Positions 1 to 61,200 of a DNA stretch of 64,000 nucleotides are shown here, piece after piece. Source of the stretch: Nitrosopumilaceae archaeon. GTDB lineage: Archaea; Thermoproteota; Nitrososphaeria; Nitrososphaerales; Nitrosopumilaceae. The stretch spans positions 1,888,001 through 1,952,000 of the forward strand of contig CBDCCK010000002.1 in the NCBI GenBank assembly GCA_965214835.1. Direction: 5' to 3'. Under the pieces are notes generated by a model. That model did no database searches and was not told the DNA's origin. It was given only the letters and a program-made list of their open reading frames with translations. Both the position numbers and the translations under genes were made by a program. The first letter of the stretch is position 1. The number at the start of each line of letters is the position of its first letter.

Positions 1-717
1 GTGGGTCCTGCCGCAGTCCTGGGTCCGCACGCGCACACCTATGCACTGCTCTCCATATACGACGCAAGGCCCGACCTGCAGGCAGCATACCCGGAGGTCG
101 TGGCAGGCGATCGTGACGCACTGACTGTCTGGGCGCGCGACTGGGGAATCAACGACTATCCGGATGATCCCGTGGGTCCTGCCGCAGTCCTGGGTCCGCA
201 CGCGCACACCTATGCACTGCTCTCCATATACGACGCAAGGCCCGACCTGCAGGCAGCATACCCGGAGGTCGTGGCAGGCGATCGTGACGCACTGACTGTC
301 TGGGCGCGCGACTGGGGAATCAACGACTATCCGGATGATCCCGTGGGTCCTGCCGCAGTCCTGGGTCCGCACGCGCACACCTATGCACTGCTCTCCATAT
401 ACGACGCAAGGCCCGACCTGCAGGCAGCATACCCGGAGGTCGTGGCAGGCGATCGTGACGCACTGACTGTCTGGGCGCGCGACTGGGGAATCAACGACTA
501 TCCGGATGATCCCGTGGGTCCTGCCGCAGTCCTGGGTTCGCACGCGCACACCTATGCACTGCTCTCCATATACGACGCAAGGCCCGACCTGCAGGCAGCA
601 TACCCGGAGGTCGTGGCAGGCGATCGTGACGCACTGATCAAGTGGATACGGGATTACGGGATAACTGAATATCCGTCTGTCCTAGGCCCATATGCACACA
701 TCTATGGTAGAGACTAA
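1..717 (+). CDS. C-terminal end (5' truncated) of a probable surface protein with >=4 tandem 57-aa 'RPDLQAAYPE' repeats
   Basis: 171-bp near-perfect tandem repeat in frame; same unit as the C-terminus of 4458..10226. Confidence 0.85.
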   Translation: MGPAAVLGPHAHTYALLSIYDARPDLQAAYPEVVAGDRDALTVWARDWGINDYPDDPVGPAAVLGPHAHTYALLSIYDARPDLQAAYPEVVAGDRDALTVWARDWGINDYPDDPVGPAAVLGPHAHTYALLSIYDARPDLQAAYPEVVAGDRDALTVWARDWGINDYPDDPVGPAAVLGSHAHTYALLSIYDARPDLQAAYPEVVAGDRDALIKWIRDYGITEYPSVLGPYAHIYGRD

Positions 718-7400: not shown

Positions 7401-10226
7401 ATAGCCGCGGCGTCTGACAACCCGGTCACGGTGGCCATCGTGATGACCCCGGTCGGGAATATAAGTGACGACCACTCGTTACTGCTTGATTCTGCCCGCG
7501 CAGTGGATACGTTTACGATAGGCAGCAGGATCTACGCGGCAGTGGCGGCCTCATCTGACGACGGTCTCCAGCTGGTCGATATCTCCGATCCCTCCAGTCC
7601 CATCGCCGCCGGGCATCTTGAGGATACCGAGGGCAGCAACGAGCTGCTGCTTGATGGTTCCAACGACGTGAACGTCTTTGTAATCGGCAGCAGGACATAT
7701 GCCGCAGTGACCACCGCATCTGACCACGGCCTCCAGATTGTAGACGTCTCCAATCCCTCCAGCCCGACTGCCGCCGGAAAACTGGCAGACAACAGCTCTA
7801 GGGAGCTTAAAGGCGCCACAGGGGTGGCCGTCTTTACGATAGGCGGCAAGACCTACGCGGCAGTGGCGGCCTCATCTGACGACGGTCTCCAGCTGGTCGA
7901 TATCTCCGATCCCACCAACCCGACTGCCGCCGGAAATCTGGGGGATACCAACTCTAGGCTGCTTGACGGTGCCTCTGACGTGGCCGTCTTTACGATAGGC
8001 GGCAAGACCTACGCGGCAGTGGCCTCATCTGCCTCTGACGACGGTCTCCAGCTGGTCGATATCTCCGATCCCACCAACCCGACTGCCGCCGGGCAGCTGG
8101 CAGCTACCAAATCTAGGCTGCTTGACGGCGTCGAGGGCCTAGACATCTTTACAACGGGTGGCAAGACCTACGCCGTCGTGACAGCCAGATTTGACGACGC
8201 CCTCCAGATTATAGACATCACCGATCCCGACAAACCTGTAGCTGCAGGGAACCTGGTGGACGGCGGCAACCTGCGGCTTGGCTCTCCCTTTGACGTGGAT
8301 GTCTTCACGCTAGACGGCAAGACCTACGCCGCAGTCACGTCGTTTGCTGATGACACACTCCAGATCATAGATGTCACCAATCCTGCCGGTCCGGCCGCCG
8401 CCGGCAGTCTGAGAGACGGAGGTTCTCTGAATCTTAACGGCATCGATGCCGTGAACGTTTTTACAGTCGGAGCGGACACCTACGCTGCAGTCGCCGCCCA
8501 ACTGGATGACGGTCTCCAGATGGTGAGGCTGAGCTCATGGGGGACATCCAACACCCCACCGGTGGCACCATCCGCGACGGCAACCACTGCAGAGGACACG
8601 TCTGTAACCATAACTCCGAACATATCGGATCCGGACACATCAGATACCCCGAGGATATCGGCAGTAGAGAACCCGCCCAACGGGACTGTTATACATGATG
8701 ATACCACCATAACTTATACGCCCGATCAGGGCTATACGGGCACCGATACGTTCGGATATACGGTAACTGATGGCACCGACTCTGTACAAGGCACGGTAAC
8801 GGTAACCGTCACACGCGACAACAACACCTCAAAGGCAATATCTGACCTGCTGAGCATCTACCACGCAAGGCCGGATCTGCAGGCAGCATACCCGGAGGCC
8901 GGCTCCAACAACGATATGACGGGACTACTTAGGTGGGCATGGCAGTACGGAATTGTTGACTATCCTGCAGACCCCAACGGCCCGCATGCAGTCCTGGGCC
9001 CGCACGCGCACACCTATGCACTGCTCTCCATATACGACGCAAGGCCCGACCTGCAGGCAGCATACCCGGAGGTCGTGGCAGGCGATCGTGACGCACTGAC
9101 TGTCTGGGCGCGCGACTGGGGAATCAACGACTATCCAAATGATCCGGTGGGTCCTGCCGCAGTCCTGGGCCCGCACGCGCACACCTATGCACTGCTCTCC
9201 ATATACGACGCAAGGCCCGACCTGCAGGCAGCATACCCGGAGGTCGTGGCAGGCGATCGTGACGCACTGACTGTCTGGGCGCGCGACTGGGGAATCAACG
9301 ACTATCCAAATGATCCGGTGGGTCCTGCCGCAGTCCTGGGCCCGCACGCGCACACCTATGCACTGCTCTCCATATACGACGCAAGGCCCGACCTGCAGGC
9401 AGCATACCCGGAGGTCGTGGCAGGCGACCACACAGCACTGACTGTCTGGGCGCGCGACTGGGGAATCAACGACTATCCAAATGATCCGGTGGGTCCTGCC
9501 GCAGTCCTGGGCCCGCACGCGCACACCTATGCACTGCTCTCCATATACGACGCAAGGCCCGACCTGCAGGCAGCATACCCGGAGGTCGTGGCAGGCGACC
9601 ACACAGCACTGACTGTCTGGGCGCGCGACTGGGGAATCAACGACTATCCAAATGATCCGGTGGGTCCTGCCGCAGTCCTGGGCCCGCACGCGCACACCTA
9701 TGCACTGCTCTCCATATACGACGCAAGGCCCGACCTGCAGGCAGCATACCCGGAGGTCGTGGCAGGCGACCACACAGCACTGACTGTCTGGGCGCGCGAC
9801 TGGGGAATCAACGACTATCCGGATGATCCGGTGGGTCCTGCAGCGGTTCTGGGCCCGCACGCGCACACCTACGCACTGCTCTCCATATACGACGCAAGGC
9901 CGGATCTGCAGGCCGCATATCCTGAGGCTGCCTCCGGCGACATGGCCGGGCTGACTGTCTGGGCGCGCGACTGGGGAATCAACGACTATCCGGATGATCC
10001 GGTGGGTCCTGCCGCAGTCCTGGGCCCGCACGCGCACACCTACGCACTGCTCTCCATATACGACGCAAGGCCCGACCTGCAGGCAGCATATCCTGAGGCT
10101 GCCTCCGGCGACATGGCCGGGCTGACTGTCTGGGCGCGCGACTGGGGAATCAACGACTATCCGGATGATCCGGTGGGTCCTGCAGCGGTTCTGGGCCCGT
10201 ACGCACACGACTATGGTGATGATTAA
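4458..10226 (+). CDS. 1922-aa surface protein: signal peptide, three LVIVD-like repeat beta-propeller blocks, Ig-like spacers, a cadherin-like domain and 8 C-terminal 57-aa repeats
   Basis: Hydrophobic N-terminus ending EVHA; ~52-aa repeats YAAVAS..DDGLQIVDVSNPSSP; NTPPVA..TAEDT..ITYTPD..YTGTDTFGYTV; 171-bp array. Confidence 0.92.
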   Translation: MAVKRQRPPRRSPAGTPALYLAFIAAAVSGLAVAGSLQEVHAQNRIEVIPAGMLSDHSSWLLDGATGVEVFTIGSKTYAAVIAYQDDGLQIVDISNPSDPYNLAKLENNGSRLLDAPYGVDIFKIGSKTYAAIASRFSDGLQIVDISNPSSPAAVGKLGDNNSRLLDGAHDVDVFTIGSKTYAAVASLEDDGLQIVDVSNPSSPTAVGKLGDNNSRELDGARGVDVFTIGSKTYAAVAANYDDGLQIVDVSNPSSPTAVGKLGDNNSRELDGAIGVAVFTIGSKTYAAVASFEDRGLQIVDVSDPSSPAAVGKLENSNTNLLDGATGVDVFVMAGRTYAAVASAFDNGLQIVDVSNPSSPTADGKLKDNNSRVLGGAVAVDIFMMGDRTYAAVASDSDDGLQLIQLRDRIKPGFVSAALDENTGLMMITLDEPIDTSDTDLSKLYVSDAGRTNEVVLTGATFDDTVPDLDTITFTLTNTQLDDIIPMATPQLDIAAGAVEDLAANAIDAAPDNAITTASPDSPIPSGRLTDSPQVHLDKSRSVDVFTLGGKIYAVAVSSTEDAIQIVDISSPDRPRARGSLDTTDSPTLLLDGARAVDTFTTGGKTYAVVASHADDGIQIVRVSDLTHPQPAGRLDDNKSRLLDGANGVNVFRIGTGIYAAVTSQYDGGLQIIDVTNPDSPTEAGKLEDGTFRLLDDTTDVDTFRVGGSTYAVVSSWVDKGIQIVDVSNPDSPRESEVLKDNNDLLLDGIRAVDAFEVGGTAYAAVASHTDGGLQIIDVSNPASPAAAGKLADTDDLLLGGASGVEIFRVGKAVYAAVASQYDGGLQIVDVSDPDNPTAAGSLEDGPELSLAAARNLSVFTHGGDLYAAVVSDTEGLQIVKLAEDDLEFVSATLDAATGKMTVTFTKTIDVSDTKLSKMYVSDAGKTNEVVLSGATFDKTTRDSETISLTLVPAQLDDITRMAAPQLDIAAGAVSDVSGNDIAAASDNPVTVAIVMTPVGNISDDHSLLLDSARAVDTFTIGSRIYAAVAASSDDGLQLVDISDPSSPIAAGHLEDTEGSNELLLDGSNDVNVFVIGSRTYAAVTTASDHGLQIVDVSNPSSPTAAGKLADNSSRELKGATGVAVFTIGGKTYAAVAASSDDGLQLVDISDPTNPTAAGNLGDTNSRLLDGASDVAVFTIGGKTYAAVASSASDDGLQLVDISDPTNPTAAGQLAATKSRLLDGVEGLDIFTTGGKTYAVVTARFDDALQIIDITDPDKPVAAGNLVDGGNLRLGSPFDVDVFTLDGKTYAAVTSFADDTLQIIDVTNPAGPAAAGSLRDGGSLNLNGIDAVNVFTVGADTYAAVAAQLDDGLQMVRLSSWGTSNTPPVAPSATATTAEDTSVTITPNISDPDTSDTPRISAVENPPNGTVIHDDTTITYTPDQGYTGTDTFGYTVTDGTDSVQGTVTVTVTRDNNTSKAISDLLSIYHARPDLQAAYPEAGSNNDMTGLLRWAWQYGIVDYPADPNGPHAVLGPHAHTYALLSIYDARPDLQAAYPEVVAGDRDALTVWARDWGINDYPNDPVGPAAVLGPHAHTYALLSIYDARPDLQAAYPEVVAGDRDALTVWARDWGINDYPNDPVGPAAVLGPHAHTYALLSIYDARPDLQAAYPEVVAGDHTALTVWARDWGINDYPNDPVGPAAVLGPHAHTYALLSIYDARPDLQAAYPEVVAGDHTALTVWARDWGINDYPNDPVGPAAVLGPHAHTYALLSIYDARPDLQAAYPEVVAGDHTALTVWARDWGINDYPDDPVGPAAVLGPHAHTYALLSIYDARPDLQAAYPEAASGDMAGLTVWARDWGINDYPDDPVGPAAVLGPHAHTYALLSIYDARPDLQAAYPEAASGDMAGLTVWARDWGINDYPDDPVGPAAVLGPYAHDYGDD
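8845..10215 (+). repeat. 171-bp coding tandem repeat (1 divergent + 7 near-identical units)
   Basis: CTGCTCTCCATATACGACGCAAGG recurs at 9021, 9192, 9363, 9534, 9705, 9876, 10047. Confidence 0.95.
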
Positions 10227-10242
10227 GAGGCACATGTTATGT

Positions 10243-10362
10243 CAGTCTTCCCAGAAGTGCCACATCGAATCATCCTAGGCTCGAAACAATTCAAATGAGA
10301 ATGCCTGCAGATCCGCATGTCGTCTACTGCACCACCACAGTCGGTTACTTTTGGGAATGCTG
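10243..10362. mobile_element. MITE family D (120 bp)
   Basis: TIR CAGTCTTCCCAGAAGT / ACTTTTGGGAATGCTG; second copy at 17577..17697, partial end at ~45228. Confidence 0.85.
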
Positions 10363-13300
10363 GTCTGCGTCCCGTTGCACCTTGGCAGTTTCTAGTGCTG
10401 CCGACGGAATGCTGGCTTCTTTTGTCAGTATCTGCGTCAGGGTATCGCGAACTAGTTCCGGGGAATAGTGGGAATTGGCAAAGGCAAGGGAGTTTTTTGA
10501 GAGCGTATTCCACAAGGATTCATCAGTGTATGCTGAGATCGCCCTGTCTACAAATTCGGCAGGGTCGTCTCCAACCAACAGGATCTTGTCGTCATCTGAC
10601 ATACCCTCTGCCCCTATCGACGTCGTAACAACAGGCAACCCATACGCAAAGCTACTAGTGATCTTTCCCTTAATCCCGGCCCCATATGTCAGAGGAACCA
10701 GCATGATCCTGCAGCGGTTGAGGTGTCCCTCTATGTCCGGTAGGTATCCGAGAAAGGCGACGTTTTTGGTACCGGTGCACAGATCCCTGATCTTTTTGGA
10801 CGCATTGCTTCCTATAACGTACAGCCTGACATCGGGCAGGCGCTCTCTGATCTGTGGGAATATGCGACTTGTCAGATATTCAAGGGAATCTACATTTGGT
10901 GGGTGTGTAAACCCTCCCACAAACAGGAAATCCTTTCGTTTTTCAAACGGTACGGGACTCTTTTGTGGAATCTGCAGCGGCGGAATTACGGCGACCGACA
11001 GGCCGGGATCCTCGTTTAGCAGGAATCTTGCCTCCTTGAGGCTACGGACTATGACCATATCTGACTTGCCGATAAGAGACAATTCGCCTTTGCTGTTCCT
11101 GCTTGCAGCAGTTATCTGTGATGGGTCTTGGGACAGTACGGCCATCCTGTACTCGCGGACAAAGTGAAGATCCGTAGTGTCGTAGACTATCTTGCATCCT
11201 GGCGCGTGTCTTTTGAGACGGTCAAAATATCTTGCGGTGATATGAGGCCTTGAGGCAAAACAGACGTGAAAGGTCTCCTTGCGTCCTTTCAAAAACTCCT
11301 CAAAGTCGCGGTTTCCGTAGACGACCTCGATTCCCTTCTGCTGCAGCTCCGTAGCATATGGCTCTGTTCTGGCCAAGTTATCTGGCCAGAAGGTGACGTT
11401 GTGGTTCATGGATGCCAAGATTGAGATCACATAGTACGCAGTAAGCGAGCCCGCGTCGCGATCGTACTCTGGGACGAAGTGATCTATGTAGAGTATGTTG
11501 AGGCCGGCAGTGCGGTTCCTCTCAAAGAATACATTCTCCGGCGAGTCCGGATGCCTGCTTTGTATGATCCCTTCCCATTTTTTCATGTATCTATCCTTGT
11601 TTGTGACTTGGAATGACTTTATTCCCTGTGAGGTGTCGGTGCCTTGGGTCCTGCCTTCGTGGTGGATGAAACAGGCCATGGGCTGGTACAGGATGCTGTA
11701 TCCCTTTTGCCTGATGGCCTGGCAGAGGTCATTGTCCTCCCAGTAGGCAACGTCGTATCCGGAGTCGAACCCTCCGTTCTCCTCGAAGATCTCCCGCCTG
11801 ACCATCAGACATGCTCCAGAACAGTAGTCGACCTCCCTGACAAAGTTATACTCGGCCTTGTCCGGGTCGTCGCCTCTCCCGTAGTTCCATACGTTTCCGT
11901 TCCCCCAGACGATGCATCCGGCTTCCTGCAGGGTTCCGTCGGCAGACAGCAGCTTGCCTCCCACGGCACCCGTCCCCTCATTCAGGGCCAGCTTCAGCAT
12001 GGCCTCCAGCCAGTTCGGCGAGGCCACCTCCATATCGTCGTTTAGAAAAACCAGATATTCGCCCCGGGCACTCTTGGATGCATGGTTGTTGATTTTTGCA
12101 AAGGAGTATTCGCCATCATAAATCAGAACCTTGTGCCTGATCCCGTCAAGGTATCGCCGCATCTCCGAATCTCCATCTTTGTTGTTTGTGACAATGATGA
12201 TCTCATAGTTTTTGTATGTCGTCTTTGACTCTATAGACTCTAGGTTCTTTCTGAGATAATCGGTTTGGTTGAGGGTGGGGATGATTATGCTGACCTTTGG
12301 ATTTCTTGGAAGCGTGAGGATTTCTGCCGATCCTATCTGAATGTGCTCTCTCAGATCTTCGTCAGGCTCGGCGGGGTACTCGTTGCAGAATATCCTTGAG
12401 TTCAATTTGGGATCATCAAGTTTGATCGTCTCCGAGTATCGCCTGACTCTTTCGGACAGGATGTTGGTGGCAACATCCAAGGAGGGGGGGGGGGGAAGGC
12501 TGCTCCAAAGTGGCAAAACCCATGTCTGAGCTTCTAGAGCCTGAGCTGTTGCAACTAAGAGACTGAAGGAAACCGTTGAGAATTTTCTCACCTACCTTAA
12601 GAGAATGGTATCTATCAAAATACGTTTTTCCATTTTGGCTGAGCCTTAACCAAAGATTCTCATCATCAAGAAGAGTGAAGACTGCATCGGCAAACTCTTC
12701 TTCATTGCTTGCGACAAGAACATCTTTTTTGCTTTTTAATTCAGTGCCGGCAAGTCCTAGAGGCGTCGTAATGACTGGAACGTTGAAGTTTAAAGACTCT
12801 AAGATTTTACCTTTTATTCCACCTGCCACCATCATATATGCAATGGTGGCAACAGCTCCGTCGTAATAAGGGAAAAGATCCTTTACAAAACCGGAAAAAT
12901 GGATGTTAGAATTTTCCATTTTTGTTAGTTCTTTAGGCGGGTCATTGCCTACAAAATACATCTCTATTGCAGGCATTTTTTTGAGAATAAGTGGAAATAC
13001 GTCATCGATGATTTTTTTCGCGGACACCACGTTTGGGGTGTGAGAAAACCCACCCACAAAAAGAAGATACTTTCTCTCATTGAATTTTTTTACTGGCCTG
13101 GTATTTAAATGGCGAATGTCAGGAAGCAGTAAAAGTTTTTCGGAGGGAACAATTTTTTGTAACAGATTTATTTCTCGCTGGGTAATCACCATTAGGTGAT
13201 CAGAGATATTGGTGAAATCTCTACCAAATTTAGTTAGTGTGTCTAGTGCTTTTTGATCATCGTCAACTTGTATGTTTTTATCTTGACTAACCAACCTGCA

Positions 13301-16300
13301 AAATCCGTAGAGATCATCAATATGGAGTAGAATTTTTGTTTGGGGGGAAGTAGTTTTAGACTGATGAAGATATTGTTTGCATTGAACAGAAGACATTCTG
13401 TTTGTATTGATAACTATCAAATCATAGTAATTTTTTCGATCTTCAAGCAAGACGGACACATCAAAATTTTGTGCGGGGATTATTTCAATCCCCAAACGTC
13501 GTAATCCGTCATTATATTCTGAGGCGCCATAGTGGCTTACAAAAAGTGTAATTTTTGAATTTAGCTGAGAAAGCAATTTTAGAATATTATGCACGCGAAG
13601 ATCTCCTCCGCTCTTATCGTGTTCTGCTATCCGCCCATCAATTACAAGAATTCTAACCGAATCGCGCATGTCCCGGGCAAGTAAAACGTTAGAGTCCGAA
13701 GGGATGTGCTTTGTAGAAAGGGCTTCCTTCCAAGTTTTCTGGAATTTGGGGCGGTTGATTATCTCGAATCGCTTTGTACCGGAGGGATTTTGCGGATCCC
13801 TGGTTGAAGAAATTCCCTCATAGTGAACTATCGAAGAGAACGGAGTATACATGACACGTAGTGAGTTTTTGTGTGCGTTGAAACAAAGATCAACATCTTC
13901 ATAATATGCAGGAATGTATTTTTCGCTAAATTTGCCCAATTTCTCAAAAATACTTTTCTTTACTAGTAAACATGCGCCAGAAACATAATCGACATCTCTA
14001 ACAAAATTATATTCCGGTTTTAAATGATCATCATTTCTGCCATATGCTCGTGCTGATCCGTCATTCCAAATTATTGAACCTGCTTCCTGCAGACTGCCGT
14101 CAGGGTACAAGAACTTGGGTCCGACAATTCCAACTTTCTCATAATGTTCAAAAATATCAAGTAAAGACTCTAACCAATTTTTTAACACAAGAGTGTCGTT
14201 GTTTAAAAACAACAGGTATTTTCCAACCGCATGGCATGATGCAAAATTATTTCCGGCAATAAACCCCAAATTAGATTTTAAATCAAACGATTTTGTATTT
14301 TTAATTTGTTTTAAAAGAAGCTTACTTGCGTTTTCAGTACAGCCGTTGTTGATTAGTATTATCTCATAAGGGATTTTGGTGTTATGTAAAACAGACGCAA
14401 GGCAATTAAATGTATATGCGGCTTTGTTATGATTTAGTATAATTATAGAAACAATAGGCGAATCATGTTTTGGAAATGTTAGGACAGAGTTAGTGTTTGC
14501 GTATTCTAATTCTTCTCTAAATTGTTCAGCTACATTACTGCCTTCTATTTTGGGAATAAGAACCGGTTTGAATGTAAGTACTGAAGTTAAGCTAGATTTG
14601 TTCTTTTTAGCTATGAATTCCTCAATTAATTTTTTTAGACCATGGGTTTTGGTGATGTACAAGCTAGATTTCATCACGCGTAAAAACTCGCCACTCCTAG
14701 TATTTGGCTTGAAAGTTCTATCTAGACTATTTGTAAATCCATTAAGAAATGAGAAAATCAGTGAGCTGTTGATTTGTTCTAATTCATATGCCAACGAATT
14801 ATATTTTGATTGTAATTCTGCCAACTCGGAGTTTTTGTAAGTAATCTGCTCTTTTAGAGAAGGTACACGCAAGTTTTTCGCGTCAACCTCTGCCTGTAGC
14901 CTCTTGACCATAGTGCCCAGCTCGGCCTTGTCGCCCTCCAGCGTGTCGACCTGCCTGCCCAGCTCGGCCTTGTCGCCCTCCAGCGTGTCGACCTGCCTGC
15001 CCAGCTCGGCCTTGTCGCCCTCCAGCGTGTCGACCTGCCTGCCCAGCTCGGCCTTGTCGCCCTCCAGCGTGTCGACCTGCCTGCCCAGCTCGGCCTTGTC
15101 GCCCTCCAGCGTGTCGACCTGCCTGCCCAGCTCGGCCTTGTCGCCCTCCAGCGTGTCGACCTGCCTGCCCAGCTCGGCCTTGTCGCCCTCCAGCGTGTCG
15201 ACCTGCCTGCCCAGCTCGGCCTCGACCTGCCTGTCTTGTCGCCCTCCAGCGTGTCGACCTGCCTGCCCAGCTCGGCCTTGTCGCCCTCCAGCGTGTCGAC
15301 CTGCCTGCCCAGCTCGGCCTTGTGCCTGCCCAGCTCGGCCTCCCTGTCTTGCAGCTTGGATGCCAGTGAGGAAGATTCTTCCGCTAGCCGAAATGAAGAA
15401 AGCAGTGATTCGTAATAGTGCTTGTATTTTCTTAGTTTCACCTTGTGAGAATCCGTGGAATCATCTGAAATTGCCCATTCGAGGAGGCGTGTGTAATCTC
15501 CGTTCTTGACTTCCGGAAAGGCCTTCCGCAGATCCGGTCTCAAGCGGTATATTTTCAATAGTTCGTCTAGCTCGATCTTGTAGCTCTCCAGATCGATCCG
15601 GCTTGGCTGTTGATCAGATATACTGGCCTCTTCAACTCGCATTTTCTGCATCTGTGATCTGATAAATTCACTTGAATTTTCTTCATGTGTGTTTTTATAG
15701 CAAATTTGCAACAGATCAAGAGCAGCTGCGTCGGTTGTGATAATCAGCGAGAGCTCTAACCACACCATTGCATTTTCAAATTTGCCACTGTCCATCAACA
15801 CATTGCCCTGCAACAGGTATCTTGCGTGATCGCTTTTATCGTGTTCAATCATTCGATCTAAGATCTTGGAACACTCGTGGTATTCCTGCAAGTTATACAG
15901 GCAGTTTGCACATCCCTCCAAGGCTGGAATGTATCCCCAATCTGTTTCAAGTATGCCCCTGTAAATTCTTAGTGCATCTGTCCACTTTGATGACTCTGCC
16001 AGCTTGTCTGCGTTGTAAAGATCTAGCAACACTTGGTTCTTTGTTAGACAATACTTTGTAGTTATATGTTTATAGACAAAGTCCTTGTTTTTCTCCATCA
16101 GTATGCTGGAGTTGCGCGTCGAGCCCTGCGTGTTGATCCAGTATTCTCCAGTGGCTTTTGGAACTCGCACAAAATAGGCGTGCTTGGAAAACCTCCTTAG
16201 AACGTCCCAGTCCTCCCAAAAATCTAGTGCCTCATCATACCTCTCAACCTTGGACAGCTCCTTTCTGTGCACCACCGCAAAATTGGGTATGAAGTTGTCC

Positions 16301-17532
16301 TGATCTACTGGATCATATCTCGCATTCTTCAGCTTCTTCAGCTTCTTTTCGATCGGAATCTGCACCCCGTCCTCATTCACCATACAGTTGACTTGGACGT
16401 AATCCGCATATACGAGCATCCTAGACTCAAATCTGACAAGCTCCCCCACGGTAACCTCCAGATGATCCGGATACAGCCTGTCATCGTCATCTAGATACGC
16501 AATGAGCTCGCCTCCAGCTGCTGTATCTATTGCATAGTTGTTGGCATAGGACTTGCCCCTGTGTTCTTCTAGCCTGATATACCTGATCCTAGGATCCTCA
16601 AACCCGTCAATTATACCCTTGATGTCCCTTCCCCCATCATTGACTATAATCAACTCGAAATTCTCATACGTCTGCGACAATACCGACCTTATCGCAAGTG
16701 GGATTATGGATTCCCTGTCTCGTGTGGCCATTATTACAGAAACAAGCGGGCTTTTGGGCGGCTTGGACGGGACTTGGCCTCCGCCTCGTGGCACCCACTT
16801 TCGCAGGAAATAGTCCTTGTTCTTCTGATCCACAAACGGTGATCTCAAGTCCGGATCCCCGGCGTGCGTAGGATCACCGGTATCGGTGCGGTAGACAAAG
16901 ACGTCCCTAGCAACCAGGATCGTCCCCCCAGCCTCCCGTATCCGCCTGCAATAGTCGTCATCATACAGCGGCCCGAAGCTGAATCCCTCGTCCAAGGGCC
17001 CTATGTCGGCTACAATCTTTGATCTTGCCACCATACAAAAGCCCCCGACCCGGTGGTATTTGGCCGTCAGACCCTCATACTTGGCGTGAAAGTCCCTGCC
17101 GTATTCGGCAATATGCACGGGATCGGATCCCACGCCGCACGAATAGTCGCACTGCATGACACCTGCCGAGTTGCTCATGGGCCCGACCGCCCCCGCATCC
17201 GGGTTGCCCTCAAGGTGTCCCACGAGCGTGTCCAGCCAGCCCGGGGTCACGATGACGCTGCTGTCCAGCCAGACGGCATACCTAGCGCGAATCTTTTCCA
17301 GTCCCTGATTCATGGCCCTTACGAACCCGGCGTCTTTTTTGTTTCTGATCAGTACCGAGCCGTCAAACCTTTTGAGGTACTGCAAGGTTCCGTCCGTCGA
17401 GCCGTTGTCTACGAATATGTACCTGTAGGATATGGCGCCTTTGCTTGCCTCTACGCTCTCGATACACCTTTTTGTGCCATCCAGATCGTTACGGGTCACG
17501 ATGATGATGTCGCACGTAGACGGTGTGCTCAT
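10345..17532 (-). pseudogene. Giant multidomain glycosyltransferase (~2390 codons) split by two frameshifts: GT2-GT2-TPR-'RPDL' domain-coiled coil-amphipathic segment-GT2-GT4-GT2-GT4
   Basis: ORFs 14854..17553, 12416..14911 and 10345..12591 join across a 14-nt insertion (15221-15234) and a C12 tract (12484-12495); start MSTPSTCDIII matches the paralog at 58218; the stop lies inside MITE D. Confidence 0.82.
14917..15320 (-). repeat. 42-bp coding tandem repeat (AELGRQVDTLEGDK, ~9 units)
   Basis: Units at 14921, 14963, 15005, 15047, 15089, 15131, 15173, 15215 (+14 nt), 15271. Confidence 0.95.
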
Positions 17533-17576
17533 ATCAATGAAAAAAGGCTCCACGTATTAATAACATACTGCATGCC

Positions 17577-17741: not shown

Positions 17742-20239
17742 GTGCCCAACCTATTTTCAGATCTAATTCGTCAACAGACCTTATGCGTAATCGACCGGAT
17801 CGAAATATTCCGACGGTGGCCGGCCATACATGCAAGGCTGACGGCATCACATGACGTGTATGAGGGCGGCAGAGTCCGTATATAGTGCAGCTACGAGCCA
17901 TTACAGCTGGTAAAAACTACAGTATAGTGCGGCATCGTGTGGCGCCGCAATGCGCTCCGTATCGTGGTATCAGAACCCATGCATGAGCTTCTTGTTCCGC
18001 TTGTCCCACAGCAGCCTAAAGTTGGCAAGCCCGGCCGTCACCTGGAACTCCCTGTCGAACTCCTCGGCGGTCCCGTCGTACGGATCACGCATCCGCTTGT
18101 ACTGCTTTATCCGTCCTATGGCGTGCTCTACTGTCACCCTCTTGCTGCTTATCCTCCTGTTCTGCGCTTTCTGTTTCTTTGTAAGCTTGCCTTTCCTTGG
18201 CTTCTTGTCGGGCTGCACGGATGTGGCCCCGGGATACACCTCCTCGATTCCCATGTATCCCAGATCAGAGAACATCTTTACCTTCTCGTCCTCGGGGTGC
18301 TTTCTGTTGCTGCGCATCCTGGCAGTCAGGATTCCCAGATCCGGTGGGTTGTTCTTTATCATGGTGAGGTCGTGCGTGCTTCCGGGCGCCGACTTGCTTG
18401 CATACATCGCCAGTCCCTTCTTGTCGGCAATCACCTGGGTGTTGCGCGTAAAGCTCTTCTTCTTGCCAGAGTATGCCTCCTTTCTTGGCTCCTTGTCTGT
18501 GGGGCGCTGTATGTCGATGTGCGTGCCGTCTACAATCACGGTCAGATCCGGGACGATCTTCTTGACTTCCTTGATCGTGCGGGCGTTTCGTATCTTTCGC
18601 GATACGGCGTCCGGCGTGGGCAGTATCTTGGTGAATATCATGTCGCAATACCTGAGGTACCTGCATACGGTGCTCTGGTCTATGCCAAAGAATGCCGCAA
18701 GCTGCTCCTGTGTCGGGTTTCCGTACTTGCGCATCAGCGACATCAGCAGGGCGTGGCGGTAGGACAGCTTGCACCGGTTTCCGGGCAAGTTGTCCTCGTC
18801 TTCTGAGAACAGGGGGCCTTCTGTGTGCTTTTTGGCAAGCTTCGTAAACCGGTCATATATGTAGTCAAACTGGCGGAGGTTCATCGACGTGGTGGGCTGC
18901 AGGGACCCGCCACCGATTATGTCATCGAGCACCTCGAGCCTGTGCATGAGGGCGGCGTTGTCCGCGGAGCGCCTGTCGTCATCCCAGGTTGCGGGCCACA
19001 TCCGGCGCTCGGCGTCCAGCTGCTGTTCCAGCTGCCCTATCCTCTCCTGATCCCGCTCCTGCCTCCTGCCGTCCTGCCTGCTCTTCTTCTCGTACTCTCT
19101 GATCTCCTTCCTGTACTGCATCCTCTCCGTCCTGTCCCGCGCCTTCTCCTTCCTGTCCTGCCTGCTCTTCTTCTCGTGCCTCTTGATCCTCTTCTCATAC
19201 TTCTTGATCTTCTTTTTGTCCCGCGCCTTCTCCTTCCTGTCCTGTACCTTCTCCTTCTCGTACTGCTCGATTCTCTTCTTCAGCAGTCGTATCTGCTCGG
19301 TCTCGGACTTTGCCATTACTCTTATGCGAGAATGGATCCCGGATCTAAATCAATCGTCTGAAAATAGTTGTGGTTTTGATCAAATATTTTCAACGTTGTA
19401 AGGTACAGTCGCGCGTGCGCCGGCCCTGACTTGCCTCATTTGTAGCCCGTGCGCCGGGGGCATCGCCGCTAATTTCGTTTACGCATAAGGTCTAACGAAC
19501 AATCGTATTTTCATTGGCTATTACTGATGTAAAATTGCGATACAAAAATTCGGCTCTGGGGTTTTTCTGGACATTTCTAGAACCTGTATTGATGCTAGGA
19601 ATACTCTATGTTGTATTTAGCAATATTTTGCGAAGTGAGATTGAACACTACCCGATGTACTTGCTGATCGGGCTGGTATTTTGGTATATGTTTTCAAGAG
19701 CTACAACTGCTGGAATGACAAGCTTGCAAGACAAATCGTTTATAATCCAAAAAACATCTTTACGTCGTGAAATTATTGTTATTAGTTCTACGCTTACCGC
19801 TTTCATAATGATGATGTTTGAACTGTTGGCGTTTGGTGTATTTGTAATAATTTTTCAATTTGTTCCGCCATTAACAATATCGTTCTTGCCTATTTTACTA
19901 CTGGAGATACTCGTTTTATCTCTAGGCATAGCGTTCATCCTCTCTATTCTTAATGTTTATTTTAGAGATATTCGCTTTATTTGGCAAGTGATTCTTCAGG
20001 CGTCTTTCTTTCTTTCTCCCATAATCTATACACTTGACATGTTTCCTGAAACCATTCGTGGTATATTGGAAATTAACCCCTTCGTCCACATGTTAAACAT
20101 AACTCATAGTTTAGTACTGTATGGAACAACGCCCGAATTAAATTCCTTGTTTTACCTGATATCCACCACTGGAGCTCTGCTGGTGTTTGGATACTATTTA
20201 TTTAAATCAAAAGGGAAAAAAATTGCGGAGAAAATATAA
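17742..20239 (+). pseudogene. wzm: ABC-2 polysaccharide exporter permease interrupted near codon 11 by an IS
   Basis: GTG CCC AAC CTA TTT TCA GAT.. at 17742 matches MPNLFSDLIRQ of 44400..45176 and resumes at 19494; KLRYKNSALGFFWTFLEP motif. Confidence 0.88.
17776..19493 (-). mobile_element. IS5-family (ISL2/DDE_Tnp_4-like) element; transposase 17970..19316
   Basis: TIR AGACCTTATGCGTAA; TSD AAC; motifs VDGTHIDIQRP..YSGKKK, HDL, SDLGY, RVTVEHAIGRIK. Confidence 0.9.
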
Positions 20240-20985
20240 TGTCTGAAAGCATTGCTTTAAGATTAGAAAATGTTTCAAAAACATTTCGTATTCGATCAAA
20301 TAAAGACAGTACACTGTTTGAATTTTTAACCTCTTTTTGGAAAAATAATGTTGATGAAGAATTGAAAGTTTTACAAAATATCAACCTAACTATTCACAAG
20401 GGTGAGACATTAGGAATATTGGGTCTTAACGGAGCTGGAAAAAGCACACTATTAAAAATTTTAGCACAAATCTACGCTCCTGACTCTGGAACATTGCACG
20501 TTAATGGGAAATTAACCCCTTTCTTGGATCTAGGTACTGGATTTAATGGAGAGCTTTCTGCACGAGAAAATGTTTATGTTTATGGCATATTGTTAGGATT
20601 ATCAAAGAAACAAATTACTGATAAAATAGGTGACATTTTTGAGTATGCAGAACTTGAAAAATTCAAAAACACAAAATTGAAGAATTTTTCTTCTGGCATG
20701 GTGGCAAGATTGGCATTTTCGACAGCTATTACCGTTGATCCTGATGTCCTGTTGGTTGACGAAGTTCTGGCAGTCGGCGATGCACTATTTCGCCAAAAAA
20801 GCTACAAAGCATTTTTAGACTTTAAACAGAAAAACAAAACAATAATTATTGTCTCTCACTCAGTAACCCAAATTCAAGATCTGTGTGACCGAGCAATACT
20901 ACTTTTCAACGGAAAAATTATTTCTGACGGTGTTCCTGATGTTGTTGCTAAAGAATATGCAAAACTAATTGACACTAAATCGTAA
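20239..20985 (+). CDS. wzt: Polysaccharide ABC exporter ATPase without a C-terminal binding domain
   Basis: GLNGAGKST, FSSGMVARLAFS, LLVDEVLAVGD; 248 aa. Confidence 0.93.
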   Translation: MSESIALRLENVSKTFRIRSNKDSTLFEFLTSFWKNNVDEELKVLQNINLTIHKGETLGILGLNGAGKSTLLKILAQIYAPDSGTLHVNGKLTPFLDLGTGFNGELSARENVYVYGILLGLSKKQITDKIGDIFEYAELEKFKNTKLKNFSSGMVARLAFSTAITVDPDVLLVDEVLAVGDALFRQKSYKAFLDFKQKNKTIIIVSHSVTQIQDLCDRAILLFNGKIISDGVPDVVAKEYAKLIDTKS

Positions 20986-21045
20986 TTACGTTGTTGCGTT
21001 TTAACCACGGGTGTGAGGTCACGTAGTATTCACGGCTACCGTATG

Positions 21046-21247
21046 AGACGTTATATCAAACCTTATCTGTAGCGGACGCCATATTATCCGTGTTGGGCCC
21101 AAGAGCCCAAGTAAACTTGCCACATATGAGGGCGTGTAAGAGACTGGCTCAGAGTAGGCGGACAACGAAATGCCACATCATCGAGGGCGAATGGGAGTTT
21201 TCCGTTCAGTTGGGCACACACACTTTGATCAACATGGAGGTGATATC
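21046..21247 (+). ncRNA. Candidate IS110 bridge RNA (variant 2) ahead of a truncated transposase start
   Basis: Two stem/internal-loop/stem modules; followed by GGAGGTGA and MINIGIDVHKKT; loop GTAAGAGA matches its junctions. Confidence 0.7.
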
Positions 21248-21551
21248 ATGATCAACATAGGAATAGACGTTCATAAGAAGACATGTATGGTAACCATCAA
21301 AGAGTAAGAGACGTTATATCAAACCTTATCTGTAGCTAGTTTGTTGCATAACCCTTCCTAAAATTTGAAATCTGACCGAAAATCACCAAAATGATCAACT
21401 AATCCTTACCGAAAAAGTAATGGATCATGAGGATGCCTCGTATGGTATACATTGACACAAACAGACAATGCAAAGTACGTAAAGAGGGGGGCAGGCCTAT
21501 ACTGACGATCATTGAAAATTTCGCCTGATTACACGTCTTGTGAAGGTTTAT

Positions 21552-21747
21552 AGACGCTATATGAAATCTTATCTGTATCCTGTGATATACAATTACCGTT
21601 GGGCCTGAGAGTCGATGTGATCTTACCATGTACAAGGGTGTTTTATAGACTGACTCGTAACAGCAGGCGGAAAGCAATATACCGCGCAGACGGTGAATGG
21701 GAGATTCCGCCCGGATCAGGCATTTTGATCAAAAAGGAGGTGATAAC
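21552..21747 (+). ncRNA. Candidate IS110 bridge RNA (variant 1)
   Basis: Stems GAGTC/GACTC and GGCGGAA/TTCCGCC enclose loops TTTATAGA and ATGGGAGA that equal the left and right junctions. Confidence 0.75.
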
Positions 21748-21958
21748 ATGATCAACTCGGCCACAGCAGTACGAAACGACTCAAGACTTGGTTCTATATA
21801 TGAAAGGATAAGAAAGAGACGAGGATGGCAAAAGGCAAAGATTGTAGTTGCAAGGCACATGCTGGAGATAATCTGGCACATGCTGACCACCGGGGAGGAG
21901 TACCGCACTCAGAGCAAGACTCTCACGCAGAGAAAGTATAAGAGAATGCATCGCATAG

Positions 21959-23211
21959 TGATCTGGACCCCGTATTTTCGAACCACTTTTTGGGCGTTTT
22001 TGCGTAGCTCTGGCATCATCATTTGCCTGCCTCCCTTTGGTGCCGTACGACGAACTCCATCGGAGTGAGATATCCAAGTGAGGAGTGTATTCTGTCATGG
22101 TTATAGTCCCTAAATGCCTCCCTTATGACGTCTGAGGCGTCCTGGAAGGAGTCAAATTCATGGGGCCACAGGTATTCCCTCTTGATGCTTCCGTGAAACG
22201 ACTCTATGTGGCCGTTTTGTTCTGGCGTCCTGTATGCTATGAGCTCGTGTCTTATTCCCAGCTGTTTCAGGGACTCCCTGAACATGCGCGACGTATACTG
22301 AGAACCGTTGTCTGTCCGCAGGGTCAGCATGCTGCAGTCCGGATCTGCTGCCGATACCGCATCGAGTACGGCCTGAACCGCATTCTCCTTTTGCGCCGTG
22401 GTATCAAAGGAGTATGCAAGCCACCTGCGCGAAAAGGCATCAAGTACGTTGAAACAGTAGCACCAGCCGTCCCCGCCGCAGTCCACGTATGTGATGTCTG
22501 CCTGCCACAGCCGGTTGGGGGCATCTGGCCTTGTAAGCTTGCGCGAGGCCCGTATTATGTCGTTTTTGGTCTTTTTGGGCTCGATCCAGCCTATCTGGCG
22601 GTAGATTCGCTGTATCTTTTTGCGGTTTACGCGCACGCCAGTCTCGCGCAATATCTGGTTTGCCATCCTCCGGGTTCCGTACGTCGGCCTTTTCTTGCCT
22701 ATGGTACGTATGATTGAGACCGTCCCGGGGTCGGCTTTTCTGGCTCGTCTGTCGGCGTCCTTCCTGGCGTAATACCAGGTGCCCTTTGAGACGCCGCAGT
22801 ATTCCAGGGCTGTATTGAGGCTCATCTTCTGGTGGCAGATCTGTACGGCATTCATCCTTTGCTCAGCTCCATTGTTTTTTTTAAAGCGTCACAGGCCACT
22901 GCATACTCGCCTATGATGCGTTTGAGATTCTGGTTCTCCTTTTGCAGGGCAGCCGCTGCCTTGTCATTCCGGCCCAGGATGGATGCCTTGCCGCCCTCGA
23001 CGAACCTGTCCATCCACCTGCCAAACGTGGTGGGCGCGATGTTGTGCTTGCGGCACAGCTCGGCAGTGCTGATGCTGGTCTTGATGGACTCCATCACTAT
23101 GTCTGTTTTTTCGGCCAATGTGAACTTTTGTTTTTTCATGCCCCGTATGCCCTCCTGTCACATACAAATTCTACGCATTTGGGTGGTTCGAATTTTATGG
23201 GGTCCTCACCA
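21959..23211 (-). mobile_element. IS3-family element (orfA 22852..23139, orfB 22019..22855)
   Basis: TG..CA inverted ends; TSD ATAG; WQADIT, RTDNGSQY, PEQNGHIESF; same as 41341..42593. Confidence 0.95.
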
Positions 23212-34022: not shown

Positions 34023-34940
34023 TCATAGCGTCAAGTTTCGGAGTTGCTGGATCCATTTGCGCTGTATCTTTTTGTAGGTCGGGCCGGCAATTGAGAAGAT
34101 TATCTTCTGCTCCTTTAGTGGCATCTTCCCATCGTAGAGTCTGATGGCGTCCGGATCTATTGAGCGATACGGATCTGTGTCTCCTATGGCGTACCCGTTC
34201 TCGTCAACGTATTTGTGCTCCATCAGGTGATGGTTCAGCATCTTGGTGTCAAACGGGATTTTCAGGAACCTGCATATGTGTCTGATGTTTCTTTCCGGCG
34301 AGGTACACAGATCTTCGTACAGGATCAGACGGAGTTTGTAGCCCATCTCGTCATACCGGAAGAAGGATTCGGTCTTTATCTTCCAGTACAACGCCACCTT
34401 TGCTGCAAACGAGAACTCGCCGGCATTTTTTATTATGGACAGGTCTCCAGCGTACTTTTCATTGAAGCCAGGAATTGTCTCGGGGTAGAGGGAATCCACA
34501 TATCCTTCCCATGAGTTGGCCCAAGATGAGTATCGTGGGTTTGTCTTTAGCCTCTTCAGGGAAAGGCACACGTCCCTGGGATCCCTGACTAGGAACAAGA
34601 CAAGATGGTTGTTGTACCTGAACGGAAATGGAAACTTGTGGTAGCTTATGTCCCTTGCCACCCCGTCTGTATTGTCAAACTGCTCTGTCAGACAGGGGCA
34701 CTTGAAGGCCAGAACTCTTTTTCCCAGACTTTTCTGCTCGCGAAGCTCCCCTTCGAGCACCGTCTCATCTGCAAAGTAATCATAGGAGGTCGGCTCGTCA
34801 TGGCAGCTGATCCCGCTGTGGCACTCGAGAATAAGATGCATCAGCGTTGTTCCAGAGCGCTGGCATCCCACAATGAGGCAGATGTCAGAGTGCTCGTCGA
34901 CCAGCCGGTCAAACAAACGCGATCTGTTGACATCGGCCAC
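34023..34940 (-). CDS. PAPS-dependent sulfotransferase
   Basis: IVGCQRSGTT (5'-PSB), LVRDPRDV..S (3'-PB), YEDL..P; paralog of the domain in 37044..39824. Confidence 0.88.
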   Translation of the reverse strand: MADVNRSRLFDRLVDEHSDICLIVGCQRSGTTLMHLILECHSGISCHDEPTSYDYFADETVLEGELREQKSLGKRVLAFKCPCLTEQFDNTDGVARDISYHKFPFPFRYNNHLVLFLVRDPRDVCLSLKRLKTNPRYSSWANSWEGYVDSLYPETIPGFNEKYAGDLSIIKNAGEFSFAAKVALYWKIKTESFFRYDEMGYKLRLILYEDLCTSPERNIRHICRFLKIPFDTKMLNHHLMEHKYVDENGYAIGDTDPYRSIDPDAIRLYDGKMPLKEQKIIFSIAGPTYKKIQRKWIQQLRNLTL

Positions 34941-57998: not shown

Positions 57999-58217
57999 AA
58001 ATTAGATACCGGGTAAATGCCAGGATTTTTCCGTACGTCTGCCAGGTAGTTTTACAGACAGACAGTCTGCCATTTGCAGGCATTATCTTGATCGATCTGA
58101 TGCAAGTTCGCTTACACATGATCAGAGTCCGCCGACTTCTAGCCGGCCCTCTGGGAAGCAAACTATTGCCATCGCACATGCAGTATGTTATTAATACGTG
58201 AGTCTTTTTTCATTGGT

Positions 58218-61200
58218 ATGAGCACACCGCCTGCGTGCGACATCATCATCATCGTGACCCGTAACGATCTGGATGGCACAAAAAGGTGTCTTGAGAGCAT
58301 AGAAAAGAACAGGGGCGCCATATCCTACAGGTACATATTCGTGGACAACGGCTCGACGGACGGAACCATTCAGTACCTGAAGCGGTTTGACGGCTCGGCG
58401 CTGATCAGAAACAAAAGGGACGCCGGTTTCGTAAGGGCCATGAACCAGGGACTGGAAAGGGTCCGCGCAGAGTATGCCGTCTGGCTGGACAGCGGCGTCA
58501 TCGTGACCCCTGGCTGGCTGGACACGCTCGTGGGGCACCTTGAGAGGAACCCGGATGCCGGGGCCGTCGGGCCCATGAGCAACACGGCAGGTGTCATGCA
58601 GCGCGACTATTCGTGCGGCGTGGGGGCCGAACCGGCGGAGATAGCCGAGTACGGCAGGGACTTTCACGCCAGACATGAGGGCCTGACGGCCGAATACCAC
58701 AGGATCGGGGGCTTTTGCATGGTGGTCAGATCGGAGCTTGCGGCCGGCATAGGGCCACTGGACGAGGGGTTCAACTTCGGGCCGCTGTACGACGACGACT
58801 ATTGCAGGAGAGTGCGGGAGGCCGGCGGCGCGGTCTTGGTTGCCAGGGACGTGTTTGTCTACCGCACGGACGGCGAGGCACCCCCGAGCGCCGGGGATCC
58901 GGACTCGAGCCCGCCGTTTGTGGATCAGAAGAACAGGGACTATTTCCTGCGCAAGTGGGTGCCACAAGGCGGGGGCAGAACCGCCAATCAGCCATCCGGA
59001 ACCCCGCTCGTTTCCGTAATAATGGCCACACAAGACAGGGAATCCACAATCCCCCTTGCGATCAAATCGGTATTGTCACAAACGTACGAGAATTTCGAGC
59101 TGATCATAGTCAACGACGGGGGAAGGGACATCAAGGGCATAATCGACGGGTTTGGGGATCCCAGGATCAAGTACATCAGGCTAGAGGAGCACAGGGGCAA
59201 GTCCTATGCCAACAACTATGCAATAGACAGGGCAGGCGGCGAGCTCATCGCGTACCTGGATGACGATGACAGGCTGTATCCGGATCACCTAGAGGTCACC
59301 GTGGGCGAGCTTGTCAGGTTCGAGTCCAGGATGCTCGTATATGCGGACTATGTCAAGACCTACTGTAAAACAGATCAAAACGGGGTACAGGTGCCGATCA
59401 GAAAGGAGCTAGAGATCCTGGAGAACGCAGCGTACGATCCGCTGGATCAGTCCAACTTCATACCCAACTTTGCTGTGGTACACAAAAGGGAGCTGTTTGA
59501 CGCAGAGAGATACGACGAGGAGCTGGAGGTTTTCGAGGACTGGGACATTCTGAGGAGGTTTTCCAAGCACGCCTACTTTGTGCACATTCCAAAGGCGACC
59601 GGGGAGTACTGGATCAACACACAGGACTCGACGCGTAACTTTAGCAGGTTCATGGATAAAAACAGGGATGTCGTCGCCAGTTACATAAGAACAAAGTACA
59701 CCACTACAAAAAGCCGCACGCTGCTGGATCTCTTCAGTGCAGACCGGCTGGCAAAATCCTCAGAGTGGTCCGACGCACTGGTAGCATACAGGAGCATACT
59801 CCAGACGGATCCAGAATACATTCCCGCCTTGGAGGGGTGTGCAAGATGCCTGTACAACCTGCGACGATACAGTGACTGCTCCAAAGTTTTGGATCGGGTG
59901 CTCGGACACGACAGGTACAACTATGAAATGTACATGCTACAGGGCAACGCACTGGCCAACACCGGCGACTATGGCGGGGCCCGAACATGGATGGAGCTTG
60001 CACTGGTAGTCGGTCACGACGCTGGCGCCCTGCGCATGCTACAGGACTGCTATGAAAACCTGCAAGGACAGGATTCCGGCGAGTTCATCGGTCTGCAGGC
60101 GCGGGAAATGCTGGACGTGGAAGCAACCGCGGTCGATCAGCAGACACCAGAGTCAGAGCTTGCCGACAGATACGAGAAGCTGCAGGCCGAGGTTGACGAG
60201 AAAAACGCCCGTGCGCTGCACCTTGACGAGGAGATAGGCACCAAGGGAGAGAGGCTGCAGGAGCTGCAGGCCGAGGTTGACGAGAAAAACGCCCGTGCGC
60301 TGCACCTTGACGAGGAGATAGGCACCAAGGGAGAGAGGCTGCAGGAGCTGCAGGCCGAGGTTGACGAGAAAAACGCCCGTGCGCTGCACCTTGACGAGGA
60401 GATAGGCACCAAGGGAGAGAGGCTGCAGGAGCTGCAGGCCGAGGTTGACGAGAAAAACGCCCGTGCGCTGCACCTTGACGAGGAGATAGGCACCAAGGGA
60501 GAGAGGCTGCAGGAGCTGCAGGCCGAGGTTGACGAGAAAAACGCCCGTGCGCTGCACCTTGACGAGGAGATAGGCACCAAGGGCAAGAGTAAGAGCAATC
60601 TTCAGATGAGACTAGATTCGGCCAGAAAAACTTTGGAGCGTAAAGAGTCACAAATAGCGGATCTGCGACGGCAGCTGCATGCACAGCACAACGAATCTGA
60701 GGAGATCAGGCAGTCCATCTTGTTTAAAACGGCGACCAGCCTTGCCAAAAAACTAGACAGGTCGTTCCCACAGAATACCCGAAGGGGCGAGATACTCAGG
60801 CTGTCCAAGGCATCACTCGACATAATCCAAAATGATGGATATGTGGCTCTTCTAAGAGCCATCAGGGAGAAACGGCGTGGCAGAGCTGGATCCGACGCCA
60901 AGGACACCGTCATCGTATCTGAAAAAACCAAGCAGCACCTTGACGAGGCATCTGCGGCCGACTCTGCAGGCACCCAGATAGATGAGCTGGAGAGAGACAA
61001 GGCAGAGCTGGGCACCCAGGTAGATGAGCTGGAGAGAGACAAGGCAGAGCTGGGCACCCAGGTAGATGAGCTGGAGAGAGACAAGGCAGAGCTGGGCACC
61101 CAGGTAGATGAGCTGGAGAGAGACAAGGCAGAGCTGGGCACCCAGGTAGATGAGCTGGAGAGAGACAAGGCAGAGCTGGGCACCCAGGTAGATGAGCTGG

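Follow-up and report, generated by a model that had tools for sequence, protein, structure and literature searches.

Terminal tandem SLH domains attach secreted proteases and surface proteins non-covalently to the cell wall, and in OmpM-type porins a single SLH domain precedes a coiled coil. The Cpl-7/CW_7, choline-binding, pseudomurein-binding and LysM repeats are also short; their repetition gives avidity, and they hold secreted enzymes on a polymer of the cell envelope. We know of no SLH domain inside a cytoplasmic glycosyltransferase, and of none of these other repeats in a cytoplasmic synthase. A different set of proteins, the coiled-coil "molecular rulers" that act in ABC-transporter-dependent glycan assembly, includes WbdD, WbbB and, from K. 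pneumoniae, O4 ORF7 and O7 ORF6. In these proteins, catalytic modules flank a tandem-repeat coiled coil; in O4 ORF7 a TPR-like bundle of helices precedes the coiled coil, and O7 ORF6 has an unexplored carbohydrate-binding module (PMC11231755). Here we describe a helical module of 52-57 amino acids (aa) that is found both in tandem arrays on secreted surface proteins and, as a single copy, in a giant glycosyltransferase. All of these are encoded in a 64,000-nucleotide stretch of DNA (the window) from a Nitrosopumilaceae archaeon (assembly GCA_965214835.1, contig CBDCCK010000002.1, positions 1,888,001 to 1,952,000). The genome is that of an ammonia-oxidising archaeon, as judged from its archaeal small-subunit rRNA (1452 bits) and archaeal AmoA (E 1.4e-115).

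The complete surface protein of the window, P0001, has a signal-peptide-like N-terminus followed by LVIVD repeats (PF08309 in Pfam, E 2.2e-77, 9 stretches; the repeat was reportedly defined in a 2004 paper), a Big_9/cadherin-like domain and the module array (Table 1). The array units start at 8844, 9018, 9189, 9360, 9531, 9702, 9873 and 10044. The first copy is diverged and has 58 aa, and the other seven have 57 aa; Tandem Repeats Finder gives a period of 171 bp, 7.2 copies and 95% matches. The sole hydrophobic segment of this protein is at its N-terminus (aa 19-37). No C-terminal hydrophobic segment was found, in agreement with a preliminary description of the window, made by a model from the letters alone, which had reported that the protein lacks a C-terminal transmembrane anchor. 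At the start of the window, the end of a paralogous surface protein carries a partial copy and then full copies at 43-213, 214-384, 385-555 and 556-705, the last of 50 aa. Its frame begins upstream of the window and encodes 2044 aa with 8 copies in total. The surface units read "ARPDLQAAYPE".

The unit in the giant glycosyltransferase occupies aa 664-714 of an 899-aa open reading frame (ORF; 14854..17553, minus strand). The preliminary description had recognized an unnamed 57-aa domain common to both surface proteins and this enzyme, and several lines of evidence bear this out. BLASTP of the array against the glycosyltransferase gave 27 identical residues out of 63 (43%, E 7e-8). We also built two leave-out profiles. 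The first was made from 29 enzyme-type copies, none of which came from this genome or its close relative, and with it every surface repeat scored an independent E-value between 5e-15 and 1.5e-12, while the copy in the glycosyltransferase scored 5e-21. The second was made from 49 secreted tandem pairs, taken from other organisms only, and it matched the glycosyltransferase copy at 2e-10. At E<=10, three of the 1173 six-frame ORFs of the window matched: the two array ORFs and the glycosyltransferase. The leave-out profiles rule out a chance similarity of surface and enzyme copies. By these profiles, the surface repeat and the glycosyltransferase unit are homologous.

The glycosyltransferase that carries the unit resembles the coiled-coil ruler type in its layout, and a function in chain termination or length control is putative. 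Its modules are arranged as GT2-GT2-TPR-module-coiled coil-GT2-GT1-GT2-GT1. One piece of it, P0002, matches GT2 (PF00535 in Pfam) at E 8.8e-46 over 2 stretches, and the pieces downstream contain GT2 and GT1. The coiled coil is built from a heptad-like 14-aa unit, and it separates GT2-GT2-TPR-module from GT2-GT1-GT2-GT1. The preliminary description had placed a copy at about 15410-15570, directly before the coiled coil, and both statements hold. The gene lies on the minus strand, however, and is read in three frames, which corrects that account. Two frameshifts, near 15230 and near 12485, split it; the first is an irregular 14-nt junction near 15234 within the 42-bp repeat that encodes the coiled coil. 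A related 2.83-Mb genome encodes an intact 2411-aa orthologue, P0075, with four GT2, two GT1 and one module copy. By tblastn, aa 1-778 of P0075 correspond to 17532..15220 of the window, aa 730-1701 to 15358..12479 and aa 1697-2411 to 12492..10348, with 94.5-99.7% identity. The split window gene is either a pseudogene or the product of an assembly error. A further giant paralogue of the same genome, L018, lies on a 13-kb contig (C1), possibly a repeat copy of the island that remained unplaced; L018 runs from the module into the coiled coil and on to more GT2. In both L018 and P0075, the coiled coil is in frame. A profile search found 0 module domains in the paralogue at 58185 (P0007), which had been described as lacking the module. 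The presence of an ABC-2 exporter beside the window glycosyltransferase is another feature that recalls the ruler systems. Many other members of the family likewise have catalytic modules flanking a tandem-repeat coiled coil and are encoded next to an ABC-2 exporter. The described ruler proteins are bacterial, and we liken the window enzyme to them by description rather than by sequence; literature searches returned no module of this family described in ruler proteins. As a separate observation, the ruler-type proteins P0074, P0094, P0099, P0114, P0143 and P0151 have a conserved segment after the coiled coil and ahead of GT2, roughly S-[IF]-x-[FYW]...R...K..P..[ST]-[KR]-R-G. It is also present in P0007 near aa 805-835 and may serve in membrane association or recruitment.

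The module compares most readily with SLH (PF00395). Both are about 55 aa long, helical, arranged in tandem and found on secreted proteases, and the single copy before the coiled coil in the window glycosyltransferase recalls the SLH layout of OmpM-type porins. The host here is an archaeon, which sets the module apart. Furthermore, the Pfam SLH profile matched neither the arrays nor the enzyme-type copies even at E<=10, and TRAE, the conserved SLH motif, is in none of the window copies. The Pfam families of the Cpl-7/CW_7, choline-binding, pseudomurein-binding and LysM repeats do not match the module either. We then modelled two repeats with AlphaFold from an alignment of 57 tandem pairs. The model is all-helical, with a predicted local distance difference test score (pLDDT) of 94.0 and a predicted template modelling score (pTM) of 0.85; a single-sequence run on three repeats gave a pLDDT of 50. 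Each unit is predicted to consist of four short helices, and a long 20-residue helix bridges into the next repeat. By this model, the module is helical and folds independently. Foldseek against the PDB returned 0 matches at E<=0.001 (best E 3.1), and VIA-align found none at Z>=5 among 48,161 chains. The top row of VIA-align was the SLH domain of OmpM1 (8bz2_A; Z 4.0, root mean square deviation 3.0 Å, 61 of 83 residues), which is not significant. Unrelated helical proteins follow at Z 3.3-3.4, and we regard these rows as tied. Applied to Foldseek's 22 chains, VIA-align gave a best Z of 2.6. The helical model is a confident one, but it has no clear relative among solved folds and matches no known carbohydrate-binding module. 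The analogy to SLH drawn in the preliminary description is therefore apt in layout, with an SLH domain as the top structural row, while the fold score and the sequence profile give it no significant match.

By searches of Pfam, NCBIfam, the PDB and the literature, the module is an undescribed family, and the earlier remark that it has no name stands. Searching Pfam with arrays and enzyme-type copies at E<=0.01 and E<=10 gave no consistent family, only scattered sub-threshold matches that differ between sequences. No NCBIfam model covers the 57-aa unit at its curated cut-off; a sub-threshold "flagellin" match (40.6 bits, cut-off 210) was judged a repeat artefact. A sequence-profile search of 177,635 distinct PDB sequences gave a best E of 0.019, to 30 residues of a hemerythrin-like protein, which is not significant. 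A word-index homologue search brought up just 4 proteins, all from the same clade, for the surface repeat and none for the glycosyltransferase copy. When 1.84 billion cluster representatives were searched exhaustively with a profile, 495 of them matched at E<=1e-3; of these, 124 reached <=1e-10 and 21 reached <=1e-30. The consensus of 302 instances is L-[LM]-x-[IV]-Y-x-x-R-x-D-L-Q-x-A-[FY]-P-[ED]-[AV]...L-x-x-W-A-x3-G...L-x-P-[YF]-x3-Y. Its top conserved polar and aromatic positions are Y6, R9, D11, Q13, F/Y16, P17, E18 and W30, and the polar residues R9, D11 and Q13 are near-invariant. A scan of genome contigs found carriers in the close relative, in Nitrososphaeraceae and Nitrosopumilaceae metagenome-assembled genomes (MAGs), and in MAGs of Deltaproteobacteria, Planctomycetia and Arenimonas; a metagenome scan found 79 loci. 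At E<=1e-5, neither 300 further genomes from the phylum of the archaeon nor 300 from that of a bacterial carrier yielded the module, and the loose first filter of these two scans makes this a sign of rarity, not of absence. Judging by these searches, the distribution of the family is patchy and rare.

To see where the module occurs, we surveyed the domain contexts of 151 proteins, made up of 147 new profile-search matches, P0001 and P0004-P0006. Three groups were evident: C-terminal arrays on proteins with signal peptides, cytoplasmic enzymes of polysaccharide synthesis, and C-terminal pairs on GT-C enzymes. Polysaccharide enzymes account for 41 of the 151. None of these 41 has a signal-peptide-like N-terminus, and they carry 1-8 copies, with a median of 2. 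Their domains include GT2, GT1/GT4, RgpF, TOD1/MUCI70, Methyltransf_24/CmcI and other methyltransferases, sulfotransferases, pyruvyl transferase and radical SAM. A recurrent order in enzyme-type proteins is module, coiled coil, conserved segment and GT2-GT2, often with a second copy at the C-terminus. Another 4 are GT-C (PMT_2) membrane enzymes, each with 2 C-terminal copies. Extracellular-type domains are present in 21 (S8, sedolisin, PKD, HYR, fn3, MG2, LamG_3, beta-helix, PQQ/NHL propellers, cupredoxins and Spherulin4). This class has a median of 4 copies, and in 90% of it the last copy is <=15 aa from the C-terminus; the array proteins have no C-terminal hydrophobic anchor. The remaining 85 have no other Pfam domain, and 27 of them start with a signal-peptide-like N-terminus. 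Among 35 ORFs scanned from the metagenome and genome-contig loci, 29 have a glycan-enzyme domain, and one more is a thermopsin protease with three C-terminal copies. Taken together, the survey ties the module strongly to polysaccharide assembly. A separate case is a 403-aa frame of the Nitrososphaeraceae MAG (L022:1735-2943, minus strand), in which two N-terminal copies precede an alpha/beta-hydrolase-like region (GNSMGG); it is divergent to a gene for a methyltransferase-GT2-GT2 protein that also bears the module.

On some proteins, the module trades places with Laminin_G_3, a concanavalin-A-like lectin domain (PF13385). The S8 protease of the window (47210-52405, plus strand) is 84% identical over 404 aa to P0004 of the relative. 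P0004 ends in 6 module copies; the window gene instead runs into three Big_9 domains, He_PIG and Laminin_G_3 (ORF 50582-52405). This continuation lies beyond an insertion sequence that appears to interrupt the gene in its cadherin-like domain and that encodes a 374-aa rve-type transposase (49541-50665, minus strand). Similarly, the GT-C enzyme of the window ends in Laminin_G_3, whereas P0105, P0108, P0124 and P0136 end in two module copies. P0061 carries both together. The two domains thus share a C-terminal position on orthologous or analogous S8 proteases and GT-C enzymes. They have no sequence relation, and Laminin_G_3 is a beta-sandwich fold, unlike the module, which is helical in the model. 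This exchange with a lectin-like domain points to a lectin-like role.

Our favoured reading, held tentatively and drawn from context, is that the module is non-catalytic and binds a polysaccharide of the cell envelope or its lipid-linked precursor. We favour it because cytoplasmic enzymes of assembly and decoration, GT-C enzymes and secreted proteins without an anchor have nothing in common but such a polysaccharide or precursor. Three elements of this are what we infer: a glycan as the ligand, the motif of R, D, Q and E plus aromatic residues as the binding site, and the arrays as surface anchors. Conserved polar and aromatic residues of these types are common in sugar-binding sites. One or a few copies in a cytoplasmic assembly enzyme would keep the enzyme on the nascent chain. 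In the window glycosyltransferase, the copy lies at the coiled-coil end nearer to the N-terminal GT2-GT2-TPR block, and the coiled coil, by oligomerising, would gather two or three copies and provide multivalency inside the cell. Outside, the 4-10 tandem copies of anchorless secreted proteins would supply avidity, and proteases and LVIVD-type adhesins would be held non-covalently on the exported polymer. We consider it possible, though somewhat doubtful, that the module is a new helical glycan-reading fold that recognizes the same polymer on both sides of the membrane, capturing the end of the growing chain for the adjoining catalytic modules at the end of the ruler and tethering secreted proteases and adhesins to the polymer after its export. 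The preliminary description had also proposed glycan binding. This gains support from the sharing of the module by secreted proteins and a glycan synthase, from the tie to polysaccharide assembly and from the anchorless arrays; its statements that the module holds the growing chain and tethers adhesins are still to be taken as conjecture.

Several observations weigh against glycan binding. Most conserved positions may be purely structural, since L2, L3, I5, Y6, L12, A15, F16, L27, W30 and A31 follow helix-packing periodicity. The model is all-helical and corresponds to no known carbohydrate-binding module by sequence or fold, and most known modules of that kind are beta-rich; at the Foldseek and VIA-align thresholds given above, it has no fold match in the PDB. 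The long predicted helix across the repeat boundary suits a rigid rod. The family would also have to recognize very different glycans in archaea and bacteria. Neighbouring ORFs of metagenomic array genes are glycan-related in only 5 of 21 cases, in an uncontrolled count. Finally, the Nitrososphaeraceae genome (5 matches) and two of three bacterial genomes (1 each) have enzyme-type frames only and 0 secreted arrays. The role in enzymes is therefore independent of secreted partners.

Of the alternatives, a protein-protein docking or oligomerisation module survives best, although we think it unlikely. Such a module would gather separate catalytic proteins in one assembly complex, or cap and steady the coiled-coil oligomer, and outside the cell the arrays would bind each other or the S-layer. 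Small helical domains are typical docking units, and different enzymes of one cluster often carry a copy each: two methyltransferases in L040, two sulfotransferases in L104, and at least five module-bearing ORFs on the contig of L044/L046/L051. A coiled-coil-like stretch begins <=40 aa after a copy in 18 of the 41 enzyme-class proteins by a crude heptad rule, and a tandem-repeat coiled coil was seen by eye after the module in all 8 of 8 hand-picked enzyme-type sequences. Pathways of this kind are described as multiprotein complexes recruited to coiled-coil proteins (PMC11231755). Docking fits less well with the 18 module matches of this genome, which all fall in two surface proteins and two glycosyltransferases and so lie on opposite sides of the membrane, with no module-bearing membrane or S-layer partner for homotypic docking outside. 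The repeated replacement by Laminin_G_3 argues for a lectin-like role instead.

An inert rod or spacer, which would extend the coiled-coil ruler in enzymes and form a stalk in surface proteins without any ligand, is improbable. The bridging helix and the high pTM of the two-repeat model are what one would expect of a rod, as is conservation that falls mostly on hydrophobic packing positions. Copy number also varies between orthologues, from 8 in the 1922-aa window protein to 10 in the 2031-aa protein of the relative, and sulfotransferase proteins such as P0027 have 4-6 spaced copies behind the catalytic domain. But a C-terminal stalk without an anchor has nothing to hold, and this is how nearly all of the secreted class ends. 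The single copies at the very C-terminus of some GT2-GT2 enzymes are hard to see as spacers, and near-invariant R9, D11 and Q13 exceed what a spacer needs.

Binding to the membrane or to a lipid carrier has a low probability in our view. Peripheral cytoplasmic enzymes would use the module to bind the inner membrane face or the polyprenyl-phosphate head group, and secreted proteins would use it to bind the outer face. The dual topology would then be accounted for, since both sides offer the same membrane and carrier lipid; enzymes that assemble lipid-linked glycans have to associate with the membrane, and Trp, Tyr and Arg are typical interfacial residues. The copies are acidic on average, however: the mean net charge per copy is about -2 for the secreted class, -1 for the enzyme class and -5 for the window surface repeat, which is unfavourable for anionic head groups. 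The ruler-type copy also lies at the end of the coiled coil opposite the GT2 modules, which would be membrane-proximal according to PMC11231755. A C-terminal secretion or sorting signal, recognized and removed, is scarcely credible: the extreme C-terminal position in 90% of the secreted class would fit, but known signals of this type are not built as 4-10 near-identical copies, and the module is also inside cytoplasmic enzymes that have no signal peptide.

Overall, the evidence supports the glycan-binding reading in part: it ties the module strongly to glycan biology and makes the comparison with SLH reasonable, and the mechanism is what we infer. If the module does read the same polymer on both sides of the membrane, one gene island would write the surface glycan and address proteins to it, and the module would be an archaeal and bacterial counterpart of the system formed by SLH and secondary cell wall polymers. 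How archaea retain secreted enzymes and adhesins at the surface without a C-terminal anchor is poorly understood, and the module also bears on a second question, the way in which ruler enzymes engage a growing chain at its end. A module common to glycan-assembly enzymes and secreted proteins offers a direct handle on both. With 495 cluster representatives, the family merits a profile in domain databases, since dozens of large proteins now have an unannotated region.

The array proteins, the module-bearing glycosyltransferase and the ABC-2 exporter share one island, both here and in the 2.83-Mb relative. The exporter genes (19514..20985, plus strand) adjoin the glycosyltransferase gene and form a Wzm/Wzt-like pair. 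The ATPase probably has no added carbohydrate-binding module, because it is only 248 aa long. In the relative, there are five secreted array proteins, of 2044, 2031, 790, 601 and 444 aa, and three of them adjoin the intact giant glycosyltransferase.

Table 1. Positions of the module copies, their host genes and neighbouring features in the 64,000-nucleotide window
Feature	Position	Strand	Evidence
C-terminal end of 2044-aa surface protein (paralogue of the 1922-aa protein)	1..717	+	ORF, profile search
Complete LVIVD surface protein P0001, 1922 aa	4458..10226	+	ORF, Pfam scan
Eight tandem module copies	8844..10214	+	Repeat finding, profile search; AlphaFold model covers the last two copies
Giant multi-module glycosyltransferase	10348..17553	-	Pfam scan, tblastn with P0075
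42-bp tandem repeat encoding the coiled coil, unit GDKAELGRQVDTLE	14914..15323	-	Tandem Repeats Finder, translation
Single enzyme-type module copy, between TPR region and coiled coil	15412..15564	-	Profile search, BLASTP
ABC-2 permease, 241 aa (ABC2_membrane)	19514-20239	+	Pfam
ABC ATPase, 248 aa (ABC_tran)	20239-20985	+	Pfam
Paralogous giant glycosyltransferase (P0007), GT2-GT2-TPR-coiled coil-GT2-GT1...	58185..63998	+	ORF, Pfam

The surroundings of these genes are varied. The intervals 17970-25337 and 45295-46332 contain at least five genes for transposases or integrases (DDE_Tnp_4, rve, DDE_3 and two DDE_Tnp_1), and the G+C content of the region swings between 39% and 62%. Because of these genes and the swings in G+C, the region is probably a mosaic, horizontally acquired glycan island. 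The GT-C enzyme that ends in Laminin_G_3 is an 835-aa PMT-like membrane protein encoded at 31262-33769 on the minus strand; near it are sulfotransferase genes (34023-34940) and a GT2-sulfotransferase-like ORF (36981-39824). The genome has 3.22 Mb, compared with 1.1-1.8 Mb for other listed genomes of the family, and one listed genome of the genus has 4.3 Mb.

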